The position numbers were made by a program, and so were the translations under genes. The notes beneath the pieces are model-generated. The model saw only the letters and a program-made list of their open reading frames with translations, had not been told where the DNA came from and ran no database searches. A stretch of 30,017 nucleotides of DNA from a virus: the UHGV virus genome UHGV-0128346. One strand, 5' to 3'. Below, in pieces: positions 4,638 to 13,381 of the stretch. Position 1 is the stretch's first letter. Each line of letters begins with the position of its first letter.

Positions 4638-4810
4638 CGGGTTGTCCCCAGTACCGACTCCGCATCATTGATCGCCCGGTTAAGCTCATCCAGAGAAGCC
4701 GCCGTATATTCAATTCTGCGACCATCTTTCTGGACAGACACCACCCGTTTACCGGTTAATAAATCAAGGCGCGCCTGACGCAGCGCCTGCAGTTCAGCGA
4801 CTGTAACCAT
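4604..4810 (-). CDS. W: Head completion / head-tail joining protein gpW
   Basis: 68-aa ORF, same length as lambda W, with recalled motifs LTGKRVxxVQKDGRR and RRRP; overlaps the ends of A and B as in lambda. Confidence 0.85.
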   Translation of the reverse strand: MVTVAELQALRQARLDLLTGKRVVSVQKDGRRIEYTAASLDELNRAINDAESVLGTTRCRRRPLGVRL

Positions 4811-6764
4811 TCACTCCTCCGGACAGCTTCGCTGCCAGTTCTTTAAGGGTTGGCCGGGTCGTCTCTTCTTCCCGGGATTTTGCCAGTACAGCCAGATCAA
4901 GCTGCCAGCGTTGCACGGACACACGTAATGCCGCGTAGGCATACACCAGGCAGTCCAGCGCTTCGTTACGCCGCTTTTTGTTATCCCACAGCAGACGCAT
5001 CTTTCCTTTTTCCCACTTCTCCACAAGCTCTTCCGCGACCAGTTGCTGCGCCTCTGTCTGCGAAAAAATCTCCGGATCATCAGGAAAACGGATAGCATAC
5101 GACGTGGCTTCATCCACAGGCGTGGGATCGGCTTTCATACGGGCATAGAGAATTTCTTTTGCGGTGTCCGTCCCCACTTCACACAGATACACGCCCCGCT
5201 GATTGCGGGTTTTTGGCATGGTGATCACCGGCTTGCCATAGACAGATGCGCCTTTTACCGGCAGCACCCGGAAAACACCGTGTTTTTTTGACCTCTGATA
5301 AACGATTTCGCCATCGATCCCCCCGATGTCCCAGCAGACACGGGAAATGGTCATTTCGGTTCCGTCTGCATGGCGGTATTTTTTGTTGATCGCCGCATCC
5401 ACACGTAACAGCGTCTCTTCCTCATCGGGACGCCCCATAATGATGATTTTATCCACCAGAAAGGCTTCCTCTCCCGGAGCCCATCCCCAGACATACATCT
5501 CAAAACGGTTTCGCTGCGAGTCAATGCCCGCCGTCAGATAAACCACCCGGGCAGGCACCGCCGCCGTGTAACGCACAACCTTATCCATCAGCACCTGGTG
5601 ATCGAGTTTTTCGCCCACAGCCTCTTCCCAGGTCTCGCCCAGCGTGGTGTTCACAAAGGTTTTCAGGCCGTTGGGATCTTTCAGTGCATCCAGCCAGTCA
5701 TAGACAATCTGTACCCAGGTGGTGAACGGACTGTACGCCGTCCAGATATGGAAAGTGATGGAGCGCGGCGGCGGAATTTCATCACCCCGGGCGCTGAAAA
5801 ACATCAGGCCGTCACGGGTCCACATGCCCGTGTTTTCACAGATCCACCGCCCGTTACTCTGGTCAAGCTCAGACTGATGGATCACACAGCCATGATGCTC
5901 ACAAAGGTAGAAAACACTTTCTGGCTTATTCTTCTCCCACTTAAGACCGAAAGGCGAGGCATCATCGCCAAATTTCAGATACTGCTCCTCCCCACAGTGC
6001 GGACAGGGCACATAAAAACGCATGAAGTGTGCCGACTCGTTAGCGGCTTTTTCGATCTGGCAGGAGCCTTTGATTTTAGGCGTCGAGCCGCGAATGGATT
6101 TTGGCCATACAGAGCCCTCAATACGTTTATCCCCCAGCAGGGTTGGCGAACCCTCTTTTTCAACATCCGGTTCGAACGAGGAAAGCTCGTCATAACAGAC
6201 CACATCCACGGATTTTTCACGGTAGTTTTTTGCTGCCGCACCACCCAGACACCAGAACCCCACACCGGAGGAAAAACGCTTCAGGGTGAGCGTATTATCG
6301 CGGTGTTTTCTTCCGAACCATGGAGCCAGCTCCAGCAATGCAGGAACATCCCTTATCGTTGGCTCAACATGAGATTTCATAAAATCTTCAGCAGCTGAGT
6401 CCGTGGGCTGAAAAAGAAGGCTGTTGCGTGATTTATGCTCAATAAAATAAGCCTCCACTCCCAGCAACATCTTTGTATAACCAACACGGGCAGATTTAAT
6501 CAGGTTAACCGTGCGAATCAGATCGTTGCCCATACAGTTCATGATGCCAACCTGAAACGGCAGTGTTTCCCATCGCCCCGGGGTATAAGACGACTCTTTA
6601 GGAAGGTAATAATGTTTATTGGCCCACTGAACTGTCGTCAGTGGAACAGGAATAATGAGAGATAAAAGCCCTGTAGCTATCGCACCGGCTGCATTAGCTG
6701 CCTTCTGCGCGTCTGAAATCATCGATCCACCCGCCCACGTTTTCACCGGCCTTAGCTGCAACAT
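4794..6764 (-). CDS. A: Terminase large subunit (lambda gpA-like)
   Basis: 656-aa ORF immediately after Nu1, size and position of lambda A; overlaps the Nu1 3' end as in lambda. Confidence 0.93.
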
Positions 6765-7242
6765 TGGAGGCTTTCGCGATTTCAGTTTTCACCACATCAA
6801 GGTGTGATGGTGAAATGTCCGGATATTTACGCTGTAATGTCAACGGCACACGCACAAGTATCCCCGAAATCTCCTGTGCCACACGTTGCAGAATGAAGGT
6901 AAACAGTTCAGTTTCCAGCACTACTCCGTCTTCACGGGCATTTTTCAGTTCCTGCGCATCTGCCTGCGCTTTTGTGAGCCGGTAGCGTTCATAGTCAATG
7001 GTGCCGGGTTGTAAATCTGACTCCGCTGCCGCACGCAAATCGTCCAGTTCTTTGCGGAGCTTTTCGTTTTCGATATCAGTTTCCCTCTGCGCATACCACT
7101 GAATTGCCATGGCAGTATCAAATACAGATTCAATGCCCTTACTACCTTTGGAGGCGCAAGGGAGTCCCTGAGACTGCCAGCGTTCAATCGTCCGCGGGTC
7201 CACGTTGAAAATTTCGGCAAGCCTCTTTTTATTAACCTTCAT
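6694..7242 (-). CDS. nu1: Terminase small subunit (lambda Nu1-like)
   Basis: 182-aa ORF; N-terminus [12 protein letters not shown]...[15 protein letters not shown]...[28 protein letters not shown] closely matches recalled lambda Nu1; first gene after cos. Confidence 0.9.
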
Positions 7243-7404
7243 GAAAACAACCCATTATCAAATACAAGGCCCGACATGAAAACGCCAGAAAAAGGCATTT
7301 TCGGACACTTTCATGTCGGACCTTTACGGATGCAATATTAAAAAAAACAAAAAGTTATATTCGAGAAGTACCGACACGATTTTCCCTGAAAAATTTTCAT
7401 AAAT

Positions 7405-7440
7405 AGTGAAAAACCGCGAGGTCGCCGCCCCGTAGCCTGT
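7405..7440 (-). other. cos site (cosN); cohesive-end core GGGCGGCGACCT on the minus strand at ~7419-7430, cosB expected between here and Nu1
   Basis: Minus strand reads ACGGGGCGGCGACCTCGCGGTTTTTCACTATTTATGAAAATTTTTC, nearly identical to the lambda cos sequence as I recall it; lies directly upstream of Nu1. Confidence 0.75.
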
Positions 7441-7579
7441 TGGATCGCCGGAAAGGACCCGAAAAACGAGAATAATTATCACTTACAGCAAGAATCGAAT
7501 CTGATCTATTATGGTGCTTGCTATTATGTGCCGGCACAAGTGCGTCGTTTACCGTCATTTCACACAGAGGCATCATCAA

Positions 7580-7831
7580 ATGAAAATCAGAAATATTCTC
7601 GCTATCTCCCTTGCAACATCATCCTTCAGTTGCCTGGCATTTAAATCCTCGCCCAATGTGCTACCAGGACCAACGAATCAACTAACTGCGGTAGAAAGTA
7701 AAATTATCGGACATTTTTATGCCCCACACAGTGCATTACCCGGAACAACCATCACAGGGACATGTGACGCCTCCCCCGTCCCGGGATGCACCTGTCCGTT
7801 TTGTACTATGCTGCGTAGCCAAAACCGATAA
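7580..7831 (+). CDS. Hypothetical small secreted cysteine-rich protein (83 aa)
   Basis: In-frame ATG with GAGG ribosome-binding site; N-terminus MKIRNILAISLATSSFSCLAFKS looks like a Sec signal peptide; mature part has C-x-C-P-F-C; oriented opposite to the structural genes, next to cos. Confidence 0.4.
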   Translation: MKIRNILAISLATSSFSCLAFKSSPNVLPGPTNQLTAVESKIIGHFYAPHSALPGTTITGTCDASPVPGCTCPFCTMLRSQNR

Positions 7832-7892
7832 CATCCGCATTTACCTGGTATTCCATGATGAGTTCACGCAGCGACTGATAGAGGAAGGAAAG

Positions 7893-8072
7893 ATGGTTAG
7901 CAAAAGCAAGGCGCATTGCCGCCGCATGCTGCAGGCATTGCAACAGACGAGAGCAGGTATTTTTGACCAGTTGGAAAACTGCCAGCATACTTTGCCCGAG
8001 TATATCGCCATCTCATCGGAAACCAGTGCAACTCTTATTCATCGGGTTCCACTAGAGAAAAAGAAGAAATGA
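7893..8072 (+). CDS. Hypothetical small protein (59 aa)
   Basis: Internal ATG of ORF 7719-8072 preceded by a strong GAGGAAGGAAAG ribosome-binding site; the upstream part of that ORF overlaps the previous gene in another frame. Confidence 0.3.
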   Translation: MVSKSKAHCRRMLQALQQTRAGIFDQLENCQHTLPEYIAISSETSATLIHRVPLEKKKK

Positions 8073-8194
8073 ACAGTGAGGCGTTGTGTGGCATACAACG
8101 CCTTCTTCCATCATTCCTCGTCAGCCATGACAAAAATATAACCGCTGGCTCTTTCATTTTTCTCCTGCTTCCAGCCCCTCTCTACCTGGAAGCA

Positions 8195-8521
8195 TCAGGG
8201 ACGTGACGGCGTAAAGATAAATTGTCTCTTCACTCCCTGACAGGGACGATTCTTTTCAAATCGCCATTTCGCCATGGCCTTCACCACTTCATCACGAAAC
8301 AAATTATGAGGCTCTGAGCGGAGAAAAACGATCCGTGTCACAGTCCCATCAGCACCAATATCGAACTTAACCTCAACCAGCCCCTTGATATAATTTGCTG
8401 CAGCATATTCCGGATATCGTGGATACACCGTCACTAATTGCCGGGGCTCATCAGCTTTTTGCTGCGAGCATCCCACTGCTAGGACAGATAACAGAAAAAG
8501 TAGTAAAAGGCGTCTTTTCAT
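8195..8521 (-). CDS. Putative lipoprotein with TonB C-terminal-like domain
   Basis: MKRRLLLLFLLSVLAVGC is a lipobox signal; C-terminal part (VEVKFDIGADGTVTRIVFLRS...AMAKWRF) resembles the TonB C-terminal fold; AGGA ribosome-binding site. Confidence 0.5.
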   Translation of the reverse strand: MKRRLLLLFLLSVLAVGCSQQKADEPRQLVTVYPRYPEYAAANYIKGLVEVKFDIGADGTVTRIVFLRSEPHNLFRDEVVKAMAKWRFEKNRPCQGVKRQFIFTPSRP

Positions 8522-9001
8522 TTTTATTCCTACGGGTCTTATTCTGACAATATATCCTGTGTTCCAGACTGCCACATCACCACATCCTGTGCCATTATCT
8601 GACTCACATTACATACATCGCATCGGGATACAGTAGTAGCACTTTCTGTAATACAGCTTCCGGTTTCTTCCACCATCGCACCGGGATAAATCCGCGAATC
8701 ATTAACGCGGTAAAAACCCGGTGTGCATCGTTTTTAATTATTCCCGCACACTCACGCAGAAGGAATTCCCCGTCGGGCTACGGTCATGGTTAATGCGGGA
8801 ATACGGCGACGATACAGCGCAGCTAAAAGGGTAATGGACGGATAGACCGGTTTATTTCATTCTACAGGATTCTGAGTGTCCCCAACTCCCTCCAATCGTC
8901 TGAGCTCACCTGTGTAGTTTTAATTTTCATCAATCCATTTAACTATCGTTTAATTGTTGTCACATAGGATTCTGCCGTTTTTAACAATGCAGGATAATAA
9001 G

Positions 9002-9295
9002 ATGAAAAAAATGTTGTTTTCTGCCGCTCTGGCAATGCTTATTACAGGATGTGCTCAACAGACGTTTACTGTTGGAAACAAACCGACAGCAGTAACACCA
9101 AAGGAAACCATCACCCATCATTTCTTCGTTTCGGGAATTGGGCAGAAGAAAACTGTCGATGCAGCAAAAATTTGTGGTGGTGCAGAAAATGTGGTTAAAA
9201 CAGAAACCCAGCAAACATTCGTAAATGGATTGCTCGGTTTCATCACTTTTGGCATTTATACTCCGCTGGAAGCGCGGGTGTATTGCTCAAAATAA
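9002..9295 (+). CDS. bor: Bor-like serum-resistance lipoprotein
   Basis: MKKMLFSAALAMLITGCAQQTFTV...ICGGAENVVKTETQQTFVNGLLGFIT matches recalled lambda Bor almost residue for residue; opposite strand to the lysis genes, as in lambda. Confidence 0.9.
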   Translation: MKKMLFSAALAMLITGCAQQTFTVGNKPTAVTPKETITHHFFVSGIGQKKTVDAAKICGGAENVVKTETQQTFVNGLLGFITFGIYTPLEARVYCSK

Positions 9296-9326
9296 TTGCA
9301 TGAGTTGCCCATCGATATGAGCAACT

Positions 9327-9803
9327 CTATCTGCACTGCTCATTAATATACTTCTGGGTTCCTTCCAGTTGTTTTTGCATAGTGATCAGCCTCTCTCTGA
9401 GGGTGAAATAATCCCGTTCAGCGGTGTCTGCCAGTCGGGGGGAGGCTGCATTATCCACGCCGGAGGCGGTGGTGGCTTCACGCACTGACTGACAGACTGC
9501 TTTGATGTGCAACCGACGACGACCAGCGGCAACATCATCACGCAGAGCATCATTTTCAGCTTTCGCATCAGCTAACTCCTTCGTGTATTTTGCATCGAGC
9601 GCAGCAACATCACGCTGACGCATCTGCATGTCAGTAATTGCCGCGTTCGCCAGCTTCAGTTCTCTGGCATTTTTGTCGCGCAGGGCTTTGTAGGCGATTG
9701 CGTTATCACGGTAATGATTAACAGCCCATGACAGGCAGACGATGATGCAGATAACCAGAGCATAAATAATCGCGGCGACTCTGCTCACTGATCTATCCCC
9801 CAA
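9327..9803 (-). CDS. Rz: Rz i-spanin
   Basis: Near-identical to recalled lambda Rz ([20 protein letters not shown]...KYINEQCR). Confidence 0.95.
9386..9568 (-). CDS. Rz1: Rz1 o-spanin (nested in Rz, +1 frame)
   Basis: 60-aa nested ORF with lipobox LPLVVVGC and the proline-rich tract [15 protein letters not shown], as in lambda Rz1. Confidence 0.9.
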
Positions 9804-10318
9804 CAGGCTAATGCGCTTTCCTGGTCACGACGAATAACCTGTCCATAGCAGTTATTTGAACGTATGCGGCAATCGCGCCCACCATCTTTTATCCACCAGC
9901 GAATCGCCTCGCATGCACCTTTACGATCACCGGCATTCAGCCGCTTATAAAACGTCGACGGGAAACACTTACCGGGGCCAATGTTATAGGGACAAAATGA
10001 CGCGATACCCGCTTTCTGTGGTTCGGTCAGTGGCACTTTAATATTGCGCTCCACCCATGCCAGCGCCTTATCCCGTTCAATGGCGTTAACCTGGTCGCAT
10101 TTTTCCTTCGACAGTTTCATACCGGGAACAACGGGTTTTCCATCCACCACCGTGGCACCCCGACAGATGGTCCAGATGCCGGAACCATCGCGGTATGCCG
10201 TTGTGTGGTTACCTTCTTTTTCATCCAGAAACTGGTCGAGAATATCAGGCGCAGGCGCACCGACGGCAATCAGTGCCAGAACGGCAGCCGACAGGCCGTA
10301 TCTGATTTTTGCGTTCAT
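9785..10318 (-). CDS. R: SAR endolysin (phage 21 R-type lysozyme, GH24)
   Basis: 177 aa; N-terminal signal-anchor-release segment ([16 protein letters not shown]) then E-x8-D-x5-T catalytic spacing ([16 protein letters not shown]); paired with a pinholin upstream. Confidence 0.9.
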
Positions 10319-10423
10319 GGATATTTATCAGGATTTATCGGTTTCTGAACCCTGGATATGTTTATCTGTCCCGGCCTGTTGAATCAGGCAAGGAATAGTT
10401 AAATACAATAGAGAGGATTGTTT

Positions 10424-10696
10424 ATGGACAATAGCACCATTTCTCTACAGGAGTTGCTCGACTGCATTTCCAGGCTTCGGGATGATGTAAATGCCCTTAC
10501 TGTCGCATTTTCATATCTGGCATTCTCAATTCCCAAGGAACAAATGCAACCAACACTGGCATCGCTCCAGCTTGAATCAATCAATCCCAAATGGTCCCAG
10601 CAACAACAAAATTCTTTCAAGTGGCTGGCGGTATTACTGGAGGAAAAATATGCTGGTGAAATTACCATTTCGGCGGAGTCTTCAGTGAACCAGTAA
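10424..10696 (+). CDS. Hypothetical protein (90 aa), reverse-oriented insert inside the lysis cassette
   Basis: ATG with strong AGAGAGGA ribosome-binding site; lower GC than its flanks; possible TTGAAT/TACAAT promoter upstream; converges on and overlaps the 3' end of the minus-strand 114-aa gene by ~35 nt. Confidence 0.4.
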   Translation: MDNSTISLQELLDCISRLRDDVNALTVAFSYLAFSIPKEQMQPTLASLQLESINPKWSQQQQNSFKWLAVLLEEKYAGEITISAESSVNQ

Positions 10697-11006
10697 TTCT
10701 TCCCGGCAGTTTTCCTTTGTAGGTTATCCACACACTCTGCGCCTCTAAAATTATGGGGCGCTTTTCCGGCGACTGCTCATCCCCTCCACATAACCCGGTA
10801 GCAACATCCAGGAAGACCTGTCTGATGCTCCTTCTGGCTGCTGCCTCATAAAACTCCAGCGCGGCACCTTCAACACGGTCCAGCGAGATGTCCAGGTCAA
10901 AAATTTCACCGTCAAAGCGTTCTTTGTCCTGTAATGCTAAAGTTACCGTAACTTTATTCTCAAAATTGCGGATCCCTTTCACAATCATTTCATAGTTTTG
11001 GACCAT
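10662..11006 (-). CDS. Hypothetical protein between holin and endolysin (possibly YdfR-like)
   Basis: 114-aa ORF; its ATG is 4 nt after the holin stop with a GAGGAGA ribosome-binding site; same position as ydfR between essQ and rrrQ in prophage Qin, as I recall. Confidence 0.6.
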   Translation of the reverse strand: MVQNYEMIVKGIRNFENKVTVTLALQDKERFDGEIFDLDISLDRVEGAALEFYEAAARRSIRQVFLDVATGLCGGDEQSPEKRPIILEAQSVWITYKGKLPGRITGSLKTPPKW

Positions 11007-11010
11007 TATA

Positions 11011-11226
11011 TTACTCTCCTCTCGCAGCCTTTCTTCTGTCTTCTCTGATTTTGAAGTACAGATTCGTCAGATAAGTCAGAAAGCCCAGAACCAGACTTCC
11101 CAGTACACCAATCGCAGCCCACTGAGACGGACTAACCTGATCAAGCCATTGTAAAAACCAGTAGCCAGCACTGCCTGCGGAGGTGCCGTAGGCAATGCCT
11201 GTTGATATTTTTTCCATCTGATACAT
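11011..11226 (-). CDS. S: Pinholin (phage 21 S-type holin), dual-start MYQMEK
   Basis: From Met25 the ORF reads [66 protein letters not shown], essentially the S21 sequence as recalled; two closely spaced Met codons. Confidence 0.85.
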
Positions 11227-11356
11227 ATCCCGCCCCAACAGACCTGTGCTACCGGAAAGAAAAAAGGCCATCAGCAAAACTCTGATGGCCTGAATCACCT
11301 TTACCAGTCATGTATGAAAAAATACGCACAACCAATTGACAATAATTATCATTTTC

Positions 11357-11458
11357 ATTAAAAATACCGCGTAACATTCTTATTTCATGAAGAACCATAC
11401 CCGCCAGCAACCTGAGTAGCAAAAGCTGTTCATCCCCCATATTTTTGCTGGCGGGTTC
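11357..11458 (+). ncRNA. Candidate small RNA antisense to the late operon (promoter-like TTGACA-N17-TAAAAA at ~11327-11355, then 12-bp-stem hairpin 11390-11447 and U-tract)
   Basis: Promoter-like hexamers followed ~35 nt later by a perfect 12-bp inverted repeat (ACCCGCCAGCAA/TTGCTGGCGGGT) and TCTTTTTTCT; no credible ORF. Confidence 0.25.
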
Positions 11459-11682
11459 TTTTTTCTACTGCCCTCCTCCCCAGGAAAAGCATTTCATTCT
11501 TTTCTCATTAATCGTTACTGGAGAGAAGGCGGGAAAAAGCCAGCTCTTTGGCCCTAAATAACAGCATGGCTTCAGTCCATACAGAATCTGATTTTCCAGC
11601 TCACATAATAACCAGATGATGCAGTTGCAAAATCTGGCAACATCGGATTATTATGCGCCTGTGAAAATTTCTTCACGTTTTA

Positions 11683-11740
11683 TTCCTTGCCGCCCGTGCC
11701 TCCCAGCGCGGGCTTTTTTATCCAAAAAATACCCCTCCGG
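11683..11740. terminator. Back-to-back intrinsic terminators sharing a T6/A6 tract (plus-strand hairpin ~11683-11704, minus-strand hairpin ~11721-11740)
   Basis: GCCCG...CGGGC followed by TTTTTT on the plus strand; TACCCCTC-CGGA-GAGGGGTA preceded by AAAAAA on the plus strand, i.e. followed by U6 on the minus strand. Confidence 0.6.
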
Positions 11741-12028
11741 AGAGGGGTATCATACAAGGGGATGACCATGATGCATGGTGCCGGGTGCCTCCCGGTGAGT
11801 CCGGCATCAGCATACGAACCCGCGATTATCCCAGAACTGACTGCTGATTCGCCCCGCCGCTTAGGGGGATTCACCATGCGTTTTTTTATTTACAAACTCT
11901 TCGCCAGACAAACAACCATTAACTGGCTGAATTGTGAGGTATTTCAATTTTTAGAAAACTGACCAACCTCCGCTTATACGCCGGGCATGGAGCGGATACA
12001 AAAAAGCCCCGCAAAAGCAGATCAGAAG

Positions 12029-12069
12029 GATTCGTTGTAAAAAAAAAGCTGTCAGATTATCGCGCTAAT
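12029..12069 (-). terminator. Intrinsic terminator downstream of the beta-class methyltransferase
   Basis: Perfect 13-bp inverted repeat AGCTGTCAGATTA-TCGCGC-TAATCTGACAGCT, followed by a T-run of 8 or more on the minus strand. Confidence 0.7.
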
Positions 12070-12319
12070 CTGACAGCTACAGCAGGTATCCAAAAACATG
12101 GGTGGAAACAATAAGTGAGTTAAGAAGACACGGTGTCGGATTTTTACCGATGAGCCGTTGGCGTGGTCAACCGTGACTCGCTTGTATCAACGATGAATTA
12201 ATGAAGCCAATCCTTTGCAGGCTATGTACAACCCACCACATCAGCCCTGCTGCATTGCAGGATACACTGTATCTGTAATCATTATACGGCACAGACATCC
12301 CACCAATAATTGAATTAAT

Positions 12320-13381
12320 TCACAAAATTGTATTTGCTGATAACATACTGATTTCCTGGATGGTCTGATTAAACCGCTCTGTCTCAAGCTCAACACCTAA
12401 CGCCCGACGCCCCAGCGCCATTGCTGCTTTTATTGTGGAACCGGATCCCATAAAGAAATCAGCAACCAGATCGCCGGGTCGACTACTGGCATTGATTATT
12501 TGCCTGAGCATATCCGCCGGTTTCTCACACGGATGTTTACCCGGGTAGAACTGAACGGGTTTATGCATCCAGACATCGGTATAAGGCACGGAGACTGATA
12601 CGGAGAAATAGCGCCGGAGAGATTTAAACTCATCCAGCAATTCAGAATATTTGCGATTCAGTGAATCATAAGATGCCACCAACTGGTGGTGTGGTTGTTC
12701 CAGTTGTTGTTCCTGAAACTTCTCTGCCGCTATACGGGAAAACAGTGCCTGTAACTTCCGGTAGTCAGCCTCATTCGGCAACTGCCACTGACTGGCACCA
12801 AACCAGTGGGAAACCATATTTTTCTTACCTGTGGCTTCGGCAATTTGTTTTGCCGTTATACCCAGTTCGGCACGAGCATCCCTGAAATACGATATCAGCG
12901 GTGCCATTATGTGCTGTTTGAGTTCCCTTTCTTTTGCCACATAGCCGTCACTTTTGCCGCGATATGGCCCCCGGTAATGTTCAGCAAACAGAACGCGCTC
13001 TGTGGCAGGAAAATATGCGCGCAGACTTTCTTTATTACACCCATTCCAACGTCCGGACGGCTTCGCCCAGATGATATGGTTAAGCACGTTGAAACGTTCA
13101 CGCATCATGATCTCAATATCAGATGCCAGGCGATGCCCACAGAACAGGTAAAGGCTTCCGGCAGGTTTCAACACCCGCCAGAACTGGGCCAGACAGTGGT
13201 CCAGCCACTTAAGGTAATCTTCGTCCCCTTTCCACTGATTGTCCCAACCGTTGGGTTTCACCTTGAAGTAAGGCGGATCGGTAACAATCAGGTCAATGGA
13301 ATCATCAGGCAGGGACTGAATAAAATGCAGGCAATCAGCGTTGATTAAATCAATACTGTTTATTTTTACAGTGTTTTTCAT
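12320..13381 (-). CDS. DNA methyltransferase, beta-class (N6-adenine or N4-cytosine); motif IV DPPY near N-terminus, motif I FxGxG near C-terminus
   Basis: 353 aa; LIVTDPPYF at residues ~31-39 and DFFMGSGST near the C-terminus give the beta-class motif order; no adjacent restriction enzyme recognised. Confidence 0.85.
   Translation of the reverse strand: MKNTVKINSIDLINADCLHFIQSLPDDSIDLIVTDPPYFKVKPNGWDNQWKGDEDYLKWLDHCLAQFWRVLKPAGSLYLFCGHRLASDIEIMMRERFNVLNHIIWAKPSGRWNGCNKESLRAYFPATERVLFAEHYRGPYRGKSDGYVAKERELKQHIMAPLISYFRDARAELGITAKQIAEATGKKNMVSHWFGASQWQLPNEADYRKLQALFSRIAAEKFQEQQLEQPHHQLVASYDSLNRKYSELLDEFKSLRRYFSVSVSVPYTDVWMHKPVQFYPGKHPCEKPADMLRQIINASSRPGDLVADFFMGSGSTIKAAMALGRRALGVELETERFNQTIQEISMLSANTIL

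Follow-up and report, generated by a model that had tools for sequence, protein, structure and literature searches.

The virus genome UHGV-0128346, a stretch of 30,017 nucleotides (nt) that we refer to as the window, represents a lambdoid prophage of the phage-21-like type from Escherichia coli; its late genes read on the minus strand. The conservation patterns of its interval between cos and bor (Table 1) indicate two independent accessory genes, which are approximately 360 bp apart and have no constrained open reading frame (ORF) between them. One gene, p83, encodes a small protein with a predicted signal peptide and four cysteines. The other encodes a lipoprotein of 108 amino acids (aa) with a TonB C-terminal domain, hereafter the TonB_C lipoprotein. 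Our best explanation would make p83 a captured periplasmic protein of the zinc-starvation response and the TonB_C lipoprotein a decoy for TonB; the confidence that we attach to it is one joint figure for both genes, a probability of approximately 0.5.

An earlier note on this DNA, made from the letters alone, had regarded the interval as accessory cargo, and comparisons with relatives bear this out. Among related lambdoid phages with the same cos and terminase, 4A7 is without p83 and the loci L011 to L013 are without the TonB_C gene. p83 is also absent from lambda and is present in phage 21 and L011; the TonB_C gene is present in phage 21, Stx1a phages, and one Klebsiella phage. Both genes occur in unrelated contexts too. 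The genome announcement of phage 21 states only that its morons differ from those of lambda. Similar to Bor/Iss of lambda and other lambdoid morons, p83 and the TonB_C gene are small genes for accessory envelope proteins in the Rz-to-cos interval with a patchy distribution among close relatives, and p83 and bor likewise read against the late transcript. However, p83 has no homology to these morons, and the TonB_C gene reads with the late transcript. The bor gene, a known moron named 'increased serum survival lipoprotein Iss' by the Prokaryotic Genome Annotation Pipeline (PGAP), is nearby as the earlier note stated. That note had also placed lom in the Rz-to-cos interval of lambda, in which lom instead adjoins J.

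The phage 21 record annotates four minus-strand ORFs in the interval (60, 40, 108, and 45 aa). In the PGAP annotation, the 108-aa gene is accompanied by the minus-strand 60-aa ORF or, in a subset of genomes, by a plus-strand 59-aa ORF. The 83-aa ORF is annotated by neither. Since these annotations conflict with the earlier note and with one another, each candidate ORF was tested for evolutionary constraint. Population counts of single-nucleotide polymorphisms (SNPs) and indels were taken from 82 near-identical E. coli copies.

p83 and its family

The signal peptide and the C-x7-C-x-C-x2-C region that the earlier note had described in the 83-aa ORF are both present, the cysteines being Cys62, Cys70, Cys72, and Cys75. 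A search of 5.8 billion proteins returned 22 relatives of conserved length, including proteins of 82-84 aa with 55-77% identity from Salmonella (salamae, indica, and others), Citrobacter, Klebsiella, and other E. coli. When 1.8 billion representatives were searched with a profile, the family widened to proteins of 80-85 aa with 27-50% identity from Enterobacter, Klebsiella, Serratia, and Salmonella. Across 24 members, down to 27% identity, C62, G69, C70, C72, and C75 are invariant and G60, P66, L78, and R79 are nearly so. The N terminus (MK(I/V), a hydrophobic stretch, and A-x-A↓F) has the features of a predicted signal peptidase I substrate, and Ala20 and Phe21 are kept in at least 90% of these members. 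p83 is not a lipoprotein because Cys18 in the signal peptide varies across the wider family.

Against seven homologous loci, synonymous sites in p83 are saturated (pS 0.65-0.87) and pN is 0.16-0.32; the ratio of nonsynonymous to synonymous substitution rates (dN/dS) is 0.10-0.16 where computable. The start codon at 7580 and its Shine-Dalgarno sequence are conserved, in contrast to a 106-aa upstream extension of the frame, and none of the 82 copies carries an indel or stop in p83. These patterns identify p83 as a real gene that is unannotated in RefSeq and in the curated phage annotation, and as a member of a new, uncharacterised Enterobacterales family. p83 and the family profile had no match in Pfam, NCBIfam, PHROGs, PADLOC, or PDB sequences, and no meaningful Pfam match was obtained for the other 23 members. 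Two proteins of approximately 620 aa among the profile-search matches (P0080 and P0082), which are rich in low-complexity sequence, contain the sequence P-[IL]-P-G-C-N-C-P-K-C-T-x-L-R, repeated four to five times with spacing. The repeat closely resembles the p83 core PVPGCTCPFCTMLR minus its first Cys, and the p83-like Cys motif may be an independent mini-module.

In other lambdoid prophages of E. coli, p83 occupies the same slot beside cos and is followed by a DUF3950 gene. Copies are also found in a Salmonella integrative and conjugative element (ICE) and a Klebsiella island. In a Salmonella island, p83 is between the gene for a PPC-domain protein and bor-omptin, with genes for a SPATE autotransporter and an NEL effector nearby. 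In the Klebsiella quasipneumoniae plasmid CP024459 (locus L005), p83 is now between a cobW/Fur-family gene pair and an integrase gene, and a degenerate cosN/cosQ-like sequence still stands upstream of it (approximately 4820-4890), which marks this copy as a descendant of a prophage right end. Homologues also occupy ordinary chromosomal loci. One is 143 nt downstream of a cobW/COG0523 gene, and another adjoins a ZnuA/ABC-3/ABC_tran operon with ALAD (delta-ALA dehydratase) and Amidohydro_1 paralogues near.

We scanned 300 nt upstream of the p83 homologues with the core TGTTATAnTATAACA of the gamma-proteobacterial Zur operator consensus. Matches of 13/14 were found upstream of the homologue in Buttiauxella noackiae and at the cobW-linked locus, 12/14 at the Enterobacter/Klebsiella locus and at the Serratia locus, and 10/14 upstream of the B. 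warmboldiae homologue. The four strong matches (L017, L033, L034, and L036) are 36-107 nt upstream, and their scores were reached by 0-3 of 2,000 shuffles. Other matches of this strength in the 10-12-kb loci occurred only at the cobW promoter and at the promoter of the znuC-like operon. In 7 kb of E. coli K-12, which served as a positive control, the sole match was the known znuA-znuC operator. The chromosomal homologues of p83 therefore appear to be regulated by Zur. ZepA, a Zur-regulated exoprotein, was considered as a relative of p83 and is unrelated in size and motif.

In the window, p83 is preceded by a Fur-box-like 7-1-7 palindrome, CGAGAATAATTATCA, which agrees with the consensus TGATAATnATTATCA at 12 of 14 positions. 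The p83 ATG follows 113 nt downstream of it and cosQ is 7 nt away; its score was reached by 4 of 2,000 shuffles. The palindrome is perfect and in the same position in the E. coli prophage L011 (approximately 4866-4880) and in lambda (NC_001416, approximately 48452-48466), where it precedes an unannotated, inward-reading DUF3950 ORF of 64 aa (complement 48109-48303). It is missing from phage 4A7 despite the same cos, and cos thus does not need it. As a control, a scan of 3.5 kb of the phage 21 sit region gave Fur matches of at least 11/14 only at the sitA promoter. The palindrome may be the operator of a cos-proximal slot for inward-reading morons. A consensus promoter scan found no convincing promoter for p83 or the TonB_C gene; by eye, the candidate elements upstream of p83 are this palindrome and TGcTATTAT at 7519-7527. 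A second Fur-like palindrome in the window, TGACAATAATTATCA (13/14, 11337-11351), overlaps a TTGACA hexamer in the region that immediately precedes the minus-strand holin gene. The 30-kb window thus has two such sites versus approximately 0.2 expected from shuffles.

We propose that the p83 family is part of the zinc-starvation response. The four invariant Cys may form a metal site in the periplasm or a disulfide-knotted module working with zinc uptake; the Cys module would bind Zn(II) or another metal, or dock on a periplasmic component of zinc uptake. Lambdoid phages would have captured a copy into the inward-reading slot beside cos, where it would have lost its Zur box and come to stand behind the palindrome common to lambda, acting as a fitness gene of the lysogen. 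Metal binding and control by Fur are thus what we infer for p83. Non-phage relatives stand behind Zur operators beside zinc-homeostasis genes, also in non-pathogens, which argues for metal physiology rather than receptor blocking. However, several points weigh against this explanation. p83 of the window has no Zur box (its best match of 10/14 was reached by 396 of 2,000 shuffles), nor do other mobile copies, and the zinc link comes from homologues at four to five loci. The Fur-like palindrome has only 12/14 agreement here and also occurs in lambda, which is without p83, and hence is not specific to p83. In the periplasm, oxidation usually turns Cys residues into disulfides instead of leaving them to serve as Zn ligands. 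The AlphaFold2 (AF2) model of p83, built from 18 sequences, had a predicted local distance difference test (pLDDT) score of 49 and no confident fold. Furthermore, literature searches found no study of p83 or of the TonB_C lipoprotein.

p83 is small, has a signal peptide, and places its four Cys in an oxidising environment, features that would also fit a disulfide-stabilised secreted effector (a toxin-like peptide, an inhibitor, or a superinfection-exclusion factor) with no metal role, for which the Zur boxes would only set the timing of expression to host-like conditions. The Salmonella copies share their island with the SPATE autotransporter, bor, omptin, and the NEL effector, and mobile copies occur without Zur boxes. 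We nevertheless regard an effector as unlikely: searches of Pfam, PADLOC, and PHROGs matched p83 to no family of toxins or defence proteins, and the p83 family is found in non-pathogenic Serratia and Buttiauxella beside cobW/znu-like genes with its own Zur operators. The toxin-like peptide for which the earlier note had recommended a homology search did not emerge, since p83 matched neither the ST enterotoxins nor any other family and has relatives in Serratia plymuthica and Buttiauxella. Precursors of the heat-stable enterotoxins STa and STb are likewise short, with a signal peptide, a variable middle, and a Cys-rich C terminus; p83 differs from them in its Cys spacing, matches no Pfam ST family, and also occurs in non-pathogens. 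A zinc-starvation role would instead place p83 beside ZnuA and ZinT, the periplasmic zinc proteins of the Zur regulon. Similar to these, the p83 homologues are predicted to be exported to the periplasm, have their own Zur operators, and adjoin znu-like or COG0523 genes. In contrast, p83 has no sequence or structural relation to ZnuA or ZinT, members of its family are a tenth of their size, and the candidate ligands are Cys rather than His/Asp/Glu.

The TonB_C lipoprotein

The earlier note had called the 108-aa ORF a TonB-C-like lipoprotein, a description that the sequence analysis upheld. Its N terminus, MKRRLLLLFLLSVLAVG followed by CSQ, contains the lipobox LAVG↓C. Gly17 is invariant in nine of nine aligned sequences, and the lipobox Cys is present in every full-length homologue and missing only in a frameshifted fragment. 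After the linker SQQKADEPRQL, the protein matches Pfam TonB_C (PF03544, E = 7.3e-13; 49.2 bits versus a cutoff of 24.6) and NCBIfam tonB_Cterm (TIGR01352, 47.4 versus a cutoff of 27.1). Residues 24-103 align with residues 151-230 of E. coli TonB without gaps over 80 residues at 40% identity. The YP motif, Y163, F180, F202, W213, and F230 of TonB are kept, and Q160, R158, and R166 are substituted by Y, T, and Y, respectively. The AF2 model (pLDDT 76) had 2gsk_B as its top Foldseek match (TM score 0.88), with 1u07 and 2grx_C also matched; the range for the three was TM 0.84-0.88 with a root-mean-square deviation of 1.1-2.2 Å, and the model superposes on TonB of the BtuB and FhuA complexes at TM 0.87-0.88. 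The protein is not a full-length TonB, since both the transmembrane anchor and the Pro-rich spacer are missing. In the NCBIfam TonB equivalog models, the match is confined to the C-terminal 80 positions (58-69 bits versus cutoffs of 265-448).

A second allele with approximately 70% identity, also of 108 aa, follows Rz1 in HK97-like and Stx1a prophages, and a homologue with 41% identity and the lipobox LLG↓CSS occupies the same post-lysis slot in a Klebsiella phage. In three phage lineages (phage 21 type, HK97/Stx1a type, and the Klebsiella phage), the gene thus follows the lysis genes on the late strand. A scan of species-representative genomes with the TonB_C protein found nothing. dN/dS between the alleles is 0.10-0.14, and the 82 E. 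coli copies contain nine synonymous and four nonsynonymous SNPs with no indels. These results identify the 108-aa ORF as a real gene for a protein with a predicted lipoprotein signal and a complete TonB C-terminal domain, and point to a family, conserved among phages, of TonB C-terminal domains with a lipoprotein anchor. Lipoproteins with Ser at position +2 are sorted to the outer membrane; the TonB_C lipoprotein has this residue and is probably sorted there.

PHROG 1267, which carries the label 'Rz-like spanin', matched the protein over its full length (E = 5e-43); the PHROG search also returned phrog_34172. We consider the label to be probably a positional mis-annotation. The gene was rejected as an Rz1-type o-spanin because it is a separate gene approximately 800 bp downstream of Rz with bor between them, the window has its own Rz1, and the mature domain is that of TonB and is not Pro-rich. 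PADLOC gave no match for the TonB_C lipoprotein or p83. Membership of the Cor/Llp family was not indicated either, since Pfam returned TonB_C alone and the PHROGs were the two named above.

Allele homology by blastn (8194-8821) extends from the stop codon of the TonB_C gene to 300 nt upstream of it. The 300-nt upstream region is conserved at approximately 70% identity across two phage types and includes an invariant 26-nt block, CCGGTGCGATGGTGGAAGAAACCGGA. It is classed as non-coding from indels whose lengths do not fit multiples of three and from the state of the 45-aa ORF annotated in it (m45, 8539-8676, minus strand), which is broken, being frameshifted in the other allele and interrupted by a stop in 6 of the 82 copies. 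It has the lowest SNP density of the interval, which suggests a regulatory or RNA-level role. The part at 8659-8821 also follows Rz in prophages that have neither the TonB_C gene nor bor. By eye, both the window and the 70% allele show a Fur-box match of approximately 10-11/19 ahead of the TonB_C gene. A Fur/Zur scan upstream of the Klebsiella phage homologue, the sole locus scanned, gave chance-level scores. In lambda, Q-antiterminated pR' transcripts run through the cos-proximal region into the head genes. The TonB_C gene has the direction of the late operon and, by analogy with lambda, is at least a late gene because such transcripts would traverse the region.

The most likely role of the TonB_C lipoprotein, by analogy, is that of a TonB decoy that blocks TonB-dependent entry. 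With no membrane anchor, ExbBD-coupling region, or Pro-rich spacer, it would be unable to transduce energy. A non-energised TonB C-terminal domain anchored to the outer membrane on its inner side would occupy the TonB boxes of TonB-dependent transporters; alternatively, it might bind the TonB boxes of colicins or form mixed dimers with TonB. In each case, phages, group B colicins, and microcins would lose their TonB-dependent entry. We infer the outer-membrane location, TonB-box binding, and the exclusion phenotype from the domain and lipobox. Periplasmic fragments of TonB reportedly inhibit TonB-dependent import (Howard et al. 2001, J Bacteriol 183:5885, as cited in PMC9841981). An exclusion role, as raised by the earlier note, may be a reasonable reading, but lysogenic conversion, also raised there, fits less well with a gene that immediately follows the lysis cassette on the strand of the late transcript and is not obviously expressed in the lysogen.

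The decoy role also has points against it. TonB residues Q160, R158, and R166, which are implicated in contacts with the TonB box, differ in the TonB_C lipoprotein. The promoter scan found no sigma-70-like promoter on the strand of the gene, and apparently late-only expression fits exclusion poorly. A constitutive TonB inhibitor would have a cost in iron uptake, yet the gene is common in extraintestinal pathogenic E. coli (ExPEC). Phage 21 J resembles lambda J throughout, with 83% identity, and this comparison gave no indication that the phage itself adsorbs through a TonB-dependent receptor.

The location of the gene would fit a late accessory protein of lysis or egress that would work alongside the spanins at the envelope or take part in release: it directly follows Rz/Rz1 on the late strand in three phage lineages, encodes an outer-membrane-type lipoprotein similar to Rz1, carries the full-length PHROG 1267 match, and has no promoter of its own that we found. 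However, a complete TonB C-terminal fold with no o-spanin features (the gene stands outside Rz and encodes no Pro-rich domain) is difficult to reconcile with this, the Rz and Rz1 genes of the window are intact, and close relatives with the same lysis genes are without the TonB_C gene. We consider a lysis role to be improbable. Several records label the sequence 'partial tonB-like' or 'TonB fragment', and the ORF spans only the C-terminal third of TonB, as would an inert fragment of a captured host tonB. This reading is largely refuted by its own lipoprotein signal peptide, by a length and architecture kept at 100%, 70%, and 41% identity, by a dN/dS of approximately 0.1, and by the SNP counts, and we regard it as very improbable.

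Three known systems come closest to the TonB_C lipoprotein. The C-terminal domain of E. coli TonB (PDB 1U07; 2GSK with BtuB; 2GRX with FhuA) has the same alpha/beta fold, and the strand that pairs with the TonB box is present in the TonB_C lipoprotein. It differs from TonB in having a lipoprotein signal in place of the anchor and spacer, which would preclude ExbB-ExbD coupling, and in missing the last residues, 233-239. Engineered periplasmic TonB fragments are also exported C-terminal regions without a membrane anchor, and they reportedly inhibited phi80 infection and killing by colicin M as well. They are soluble, overexpressed laboratory constructs of TonB itself, in contrast to the phage protein, which is natural, diverged, and predicted to be lipid-anchored. 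Cor (phi80, HK022, and N15) and Llp (T5) are phage lipoproteins that inactivate FhuA. The TonB_C lipoprotein would similarly be a small phage-encoded lipoprotein on the periplasmic face of the outer membrane that blocks a TonB-dependent transporter as a phage gate. However, no sequence or fold relation to Cor or Llp was detected, and they act on a single receptor, whereas the TonB_C lipoprotein would be expected to act at the TonB box, a step common to all TonB-dependent transporters. Llp:FhuA is the topic of a preprint (10.64898/2026.03.26.714494).

A possible metal-related cargo set

Outside the window, phage 21 (OL657228, 21967-25416) carries sitABCD, cargo that encodes an Fe/Mn ABC importer and has Fur-box matches at the sitA promoter. 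sitABCD, the TonB_C gene, and p83 give phage 21 a metal-related cargo theme. We tentatively extend this theme, as a somewhat doubtful idea, to a coordinated set in phage-21-type prophages, in which a lipoprotein would jam TonB boxes, SitABCD would offset the lost iron uptake, and p83 would be the founding member of a Zur-controlled Cys4 family. SitABCD is independent of TonB, and such a trade-off in phage 21 is conceivable; its presence proves nothing.

If the TonB_C lipoprotein is a TonB decoy, a lipid-anchored TonB C-terminal domain would represent a new mechanism among phage-encoded exclusion systems, a receptor-independent exclusion of superinfecting phages, colicins, and microcins. Susceptibility to TonB-dependent phages, colicins, microcins, and siderophore-conjugated antibiotics may then be altered in much of the species, as the module is present in approximately 22% of complete E. 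coli genomes. If p83 is a zinc handler of the Zur regulon, it would be a new component of enterobacterial zinc acquisition that is spreading on mobile elements, and the first member of a hitherto unrecognised family of Zur-controlled periplasmic Cys4 mini-proteins that were repeatedly captured by phages, ICEs, and plasmids. For annotation, the best-conserved small gene of the interval is unannotated and the annotated ORFs carry stops in many genomes.

The cos-to-bor interval and its other ORFs

The features of the interval and its surroundings are summarised in Table 1. The gene order is terminase, Nu1, cos, the studied interval, bor, Rz/Rz1, and endolysin.

Table 1. Positions of genes, sites, and ORFs in and around the cos-to-bor interval (window coordinates)
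Feature	Position	Strand	Remarks
Terminase large subunit	4794-6764	-	Late strand
Nu1	6694-7242	-	Late strand
cosN, 12-nt cohesive end	7419-7430		Minus strand reads GGGCGGCGACCT; direct reading
cosQ	7454-7460	-	Transferred from the OL657228 misc_feature, locus positions 24-30
Fur-box-like palindrome	7467-7481		Candidate operator
p83 gene	7580-7831	+	83-aa precursor of a small, predicted Sec-exported protein (mature approximately 63 aa); homologues, dN/dS, Shine-Dalgarno sequence
p83 signal peptide	7580-7639	+	MKIRNILAISLATSSFSCLA, then FK; cleavage predicted after Ala20 (A-x-A↓F)
p83 core motif C62-x7-C70-x-C72-x2-C75	7763-7804	+	Within G-x-C-x3-P-x2-G-C-x-C-x2-C-x2-L-R
m60 (60-aa ORF)	7806-7988	-	'Hypothetical protein' of PGAP/CPT; not supported
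Spacer	7832-8194		363 bp, specific to phage-21-type prophages; homology to the 70% TonB_C allele ends exactly at 8194
p59 (59-aa ORF)	7893-8072	+	Preceded by GAGGAAGGA; not supported as a gene
m40 (40-aa ORF)	8035-8157	-	Not supported
TonB_C lipoprotein gene	8195-8521	-	108 aa; lipoprotein signal 8468-8521; 11-residue linker; TonB C-terminal domain approximately 8213-8452
Conserved non-coding region	8522-8821	-	Travels with the TonB_C gene in the 70% allele
bor/iss lipoprotein gene	9002-9295	+	Pfam Lambda_Bor E = 6e-31; upstream region 8822-9001
Rz and Rz1	9327-9803	-	Late strand; Rz1 at 9386-9568, both intact
Endolysin	9785-10318	-	Late strand

The conservation that the earlier note had asked of its ORFs was found for p83 and the TonB_C gene, with homologues of conserved length and dN/dS of approximately 0.1-0.16, but not for p59. 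The ORF exists behind its ribosome-binding site as described; however, it did not hold up as a gene. p59 has no divergent homologues, its only relatives being near-identical or frameshifted E. coli copies. The 82 copies have two synonymous versus seven nonsynonymous SNPs in its frame, with indels at 7907 and 8058, and in six of them, a 1-nt insertion 15 nt after the ATG puts the start out of frame; the clade with this insertion is found on 486 contigs. A real, young, lineage-specific small protein gene in the DUF3950 slot would explain the good Shine-Dalgarno sequence of p59, its position and orientation, which are those of the DUF3950 genes of lambda, L011, and the loci with the 70% TonB_C allele, two SNPs that are synonymous in its frame and nonsynonymous in the antisense ORF, and the PGAP calls in some genomes. 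We consider such a gene to be improbable given the counts above, and p59 was rejected as a divergent DUF3950 protein for lack of similarity to that family.

The annotated antisense ORFs were rejected on similar grounds: m60 has no synonymous versus six nonsynonymous SNPs and a stop codon in 23 of the 82 copies, and m40 is interrupted by a stop in six. Together with m45, these ORFs and p59 showed no sign of constraint in the alignments and are unsupported as genes. PGAP calls m60 (WP_000881608/610/607) or p59 (WP_000253883), whichever the SNPs leave open. An Rfam scan of 7200-9400 gave matches at chance level only.

The DNA of the interval itself is already in public records. Over positions 7250-9000, the window is 99% identical to several E. 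coli prophages and to classical phage 21 (OL657228) at its right end, and 100% identical to E. coli AR_0086. In the megablast alignment, the linear phage 21 record ends at window position 7431, its right end. The segment 7832-8197 was present in 1,224 of 5,426 complete E. coli genomes (approximately 22%), always at 98.9% identity or higher, and its carriers include Nissle 1917, 83972, ST131 EC958, 536, and NC101.

The window is a mosaic relative of phage 21 and not phage 21 itself, because the lysis region (9785-13381) differs between them: the window has a 177-aa endolysin versus the 165-aa SAR endolysin of phage 21. The same region also contains a YdfR-family gene, a class II holin gene, and a 353-aa ORF (12320-13381) with a DPPY motif typical of N6/N4 DNA methyltransferases.

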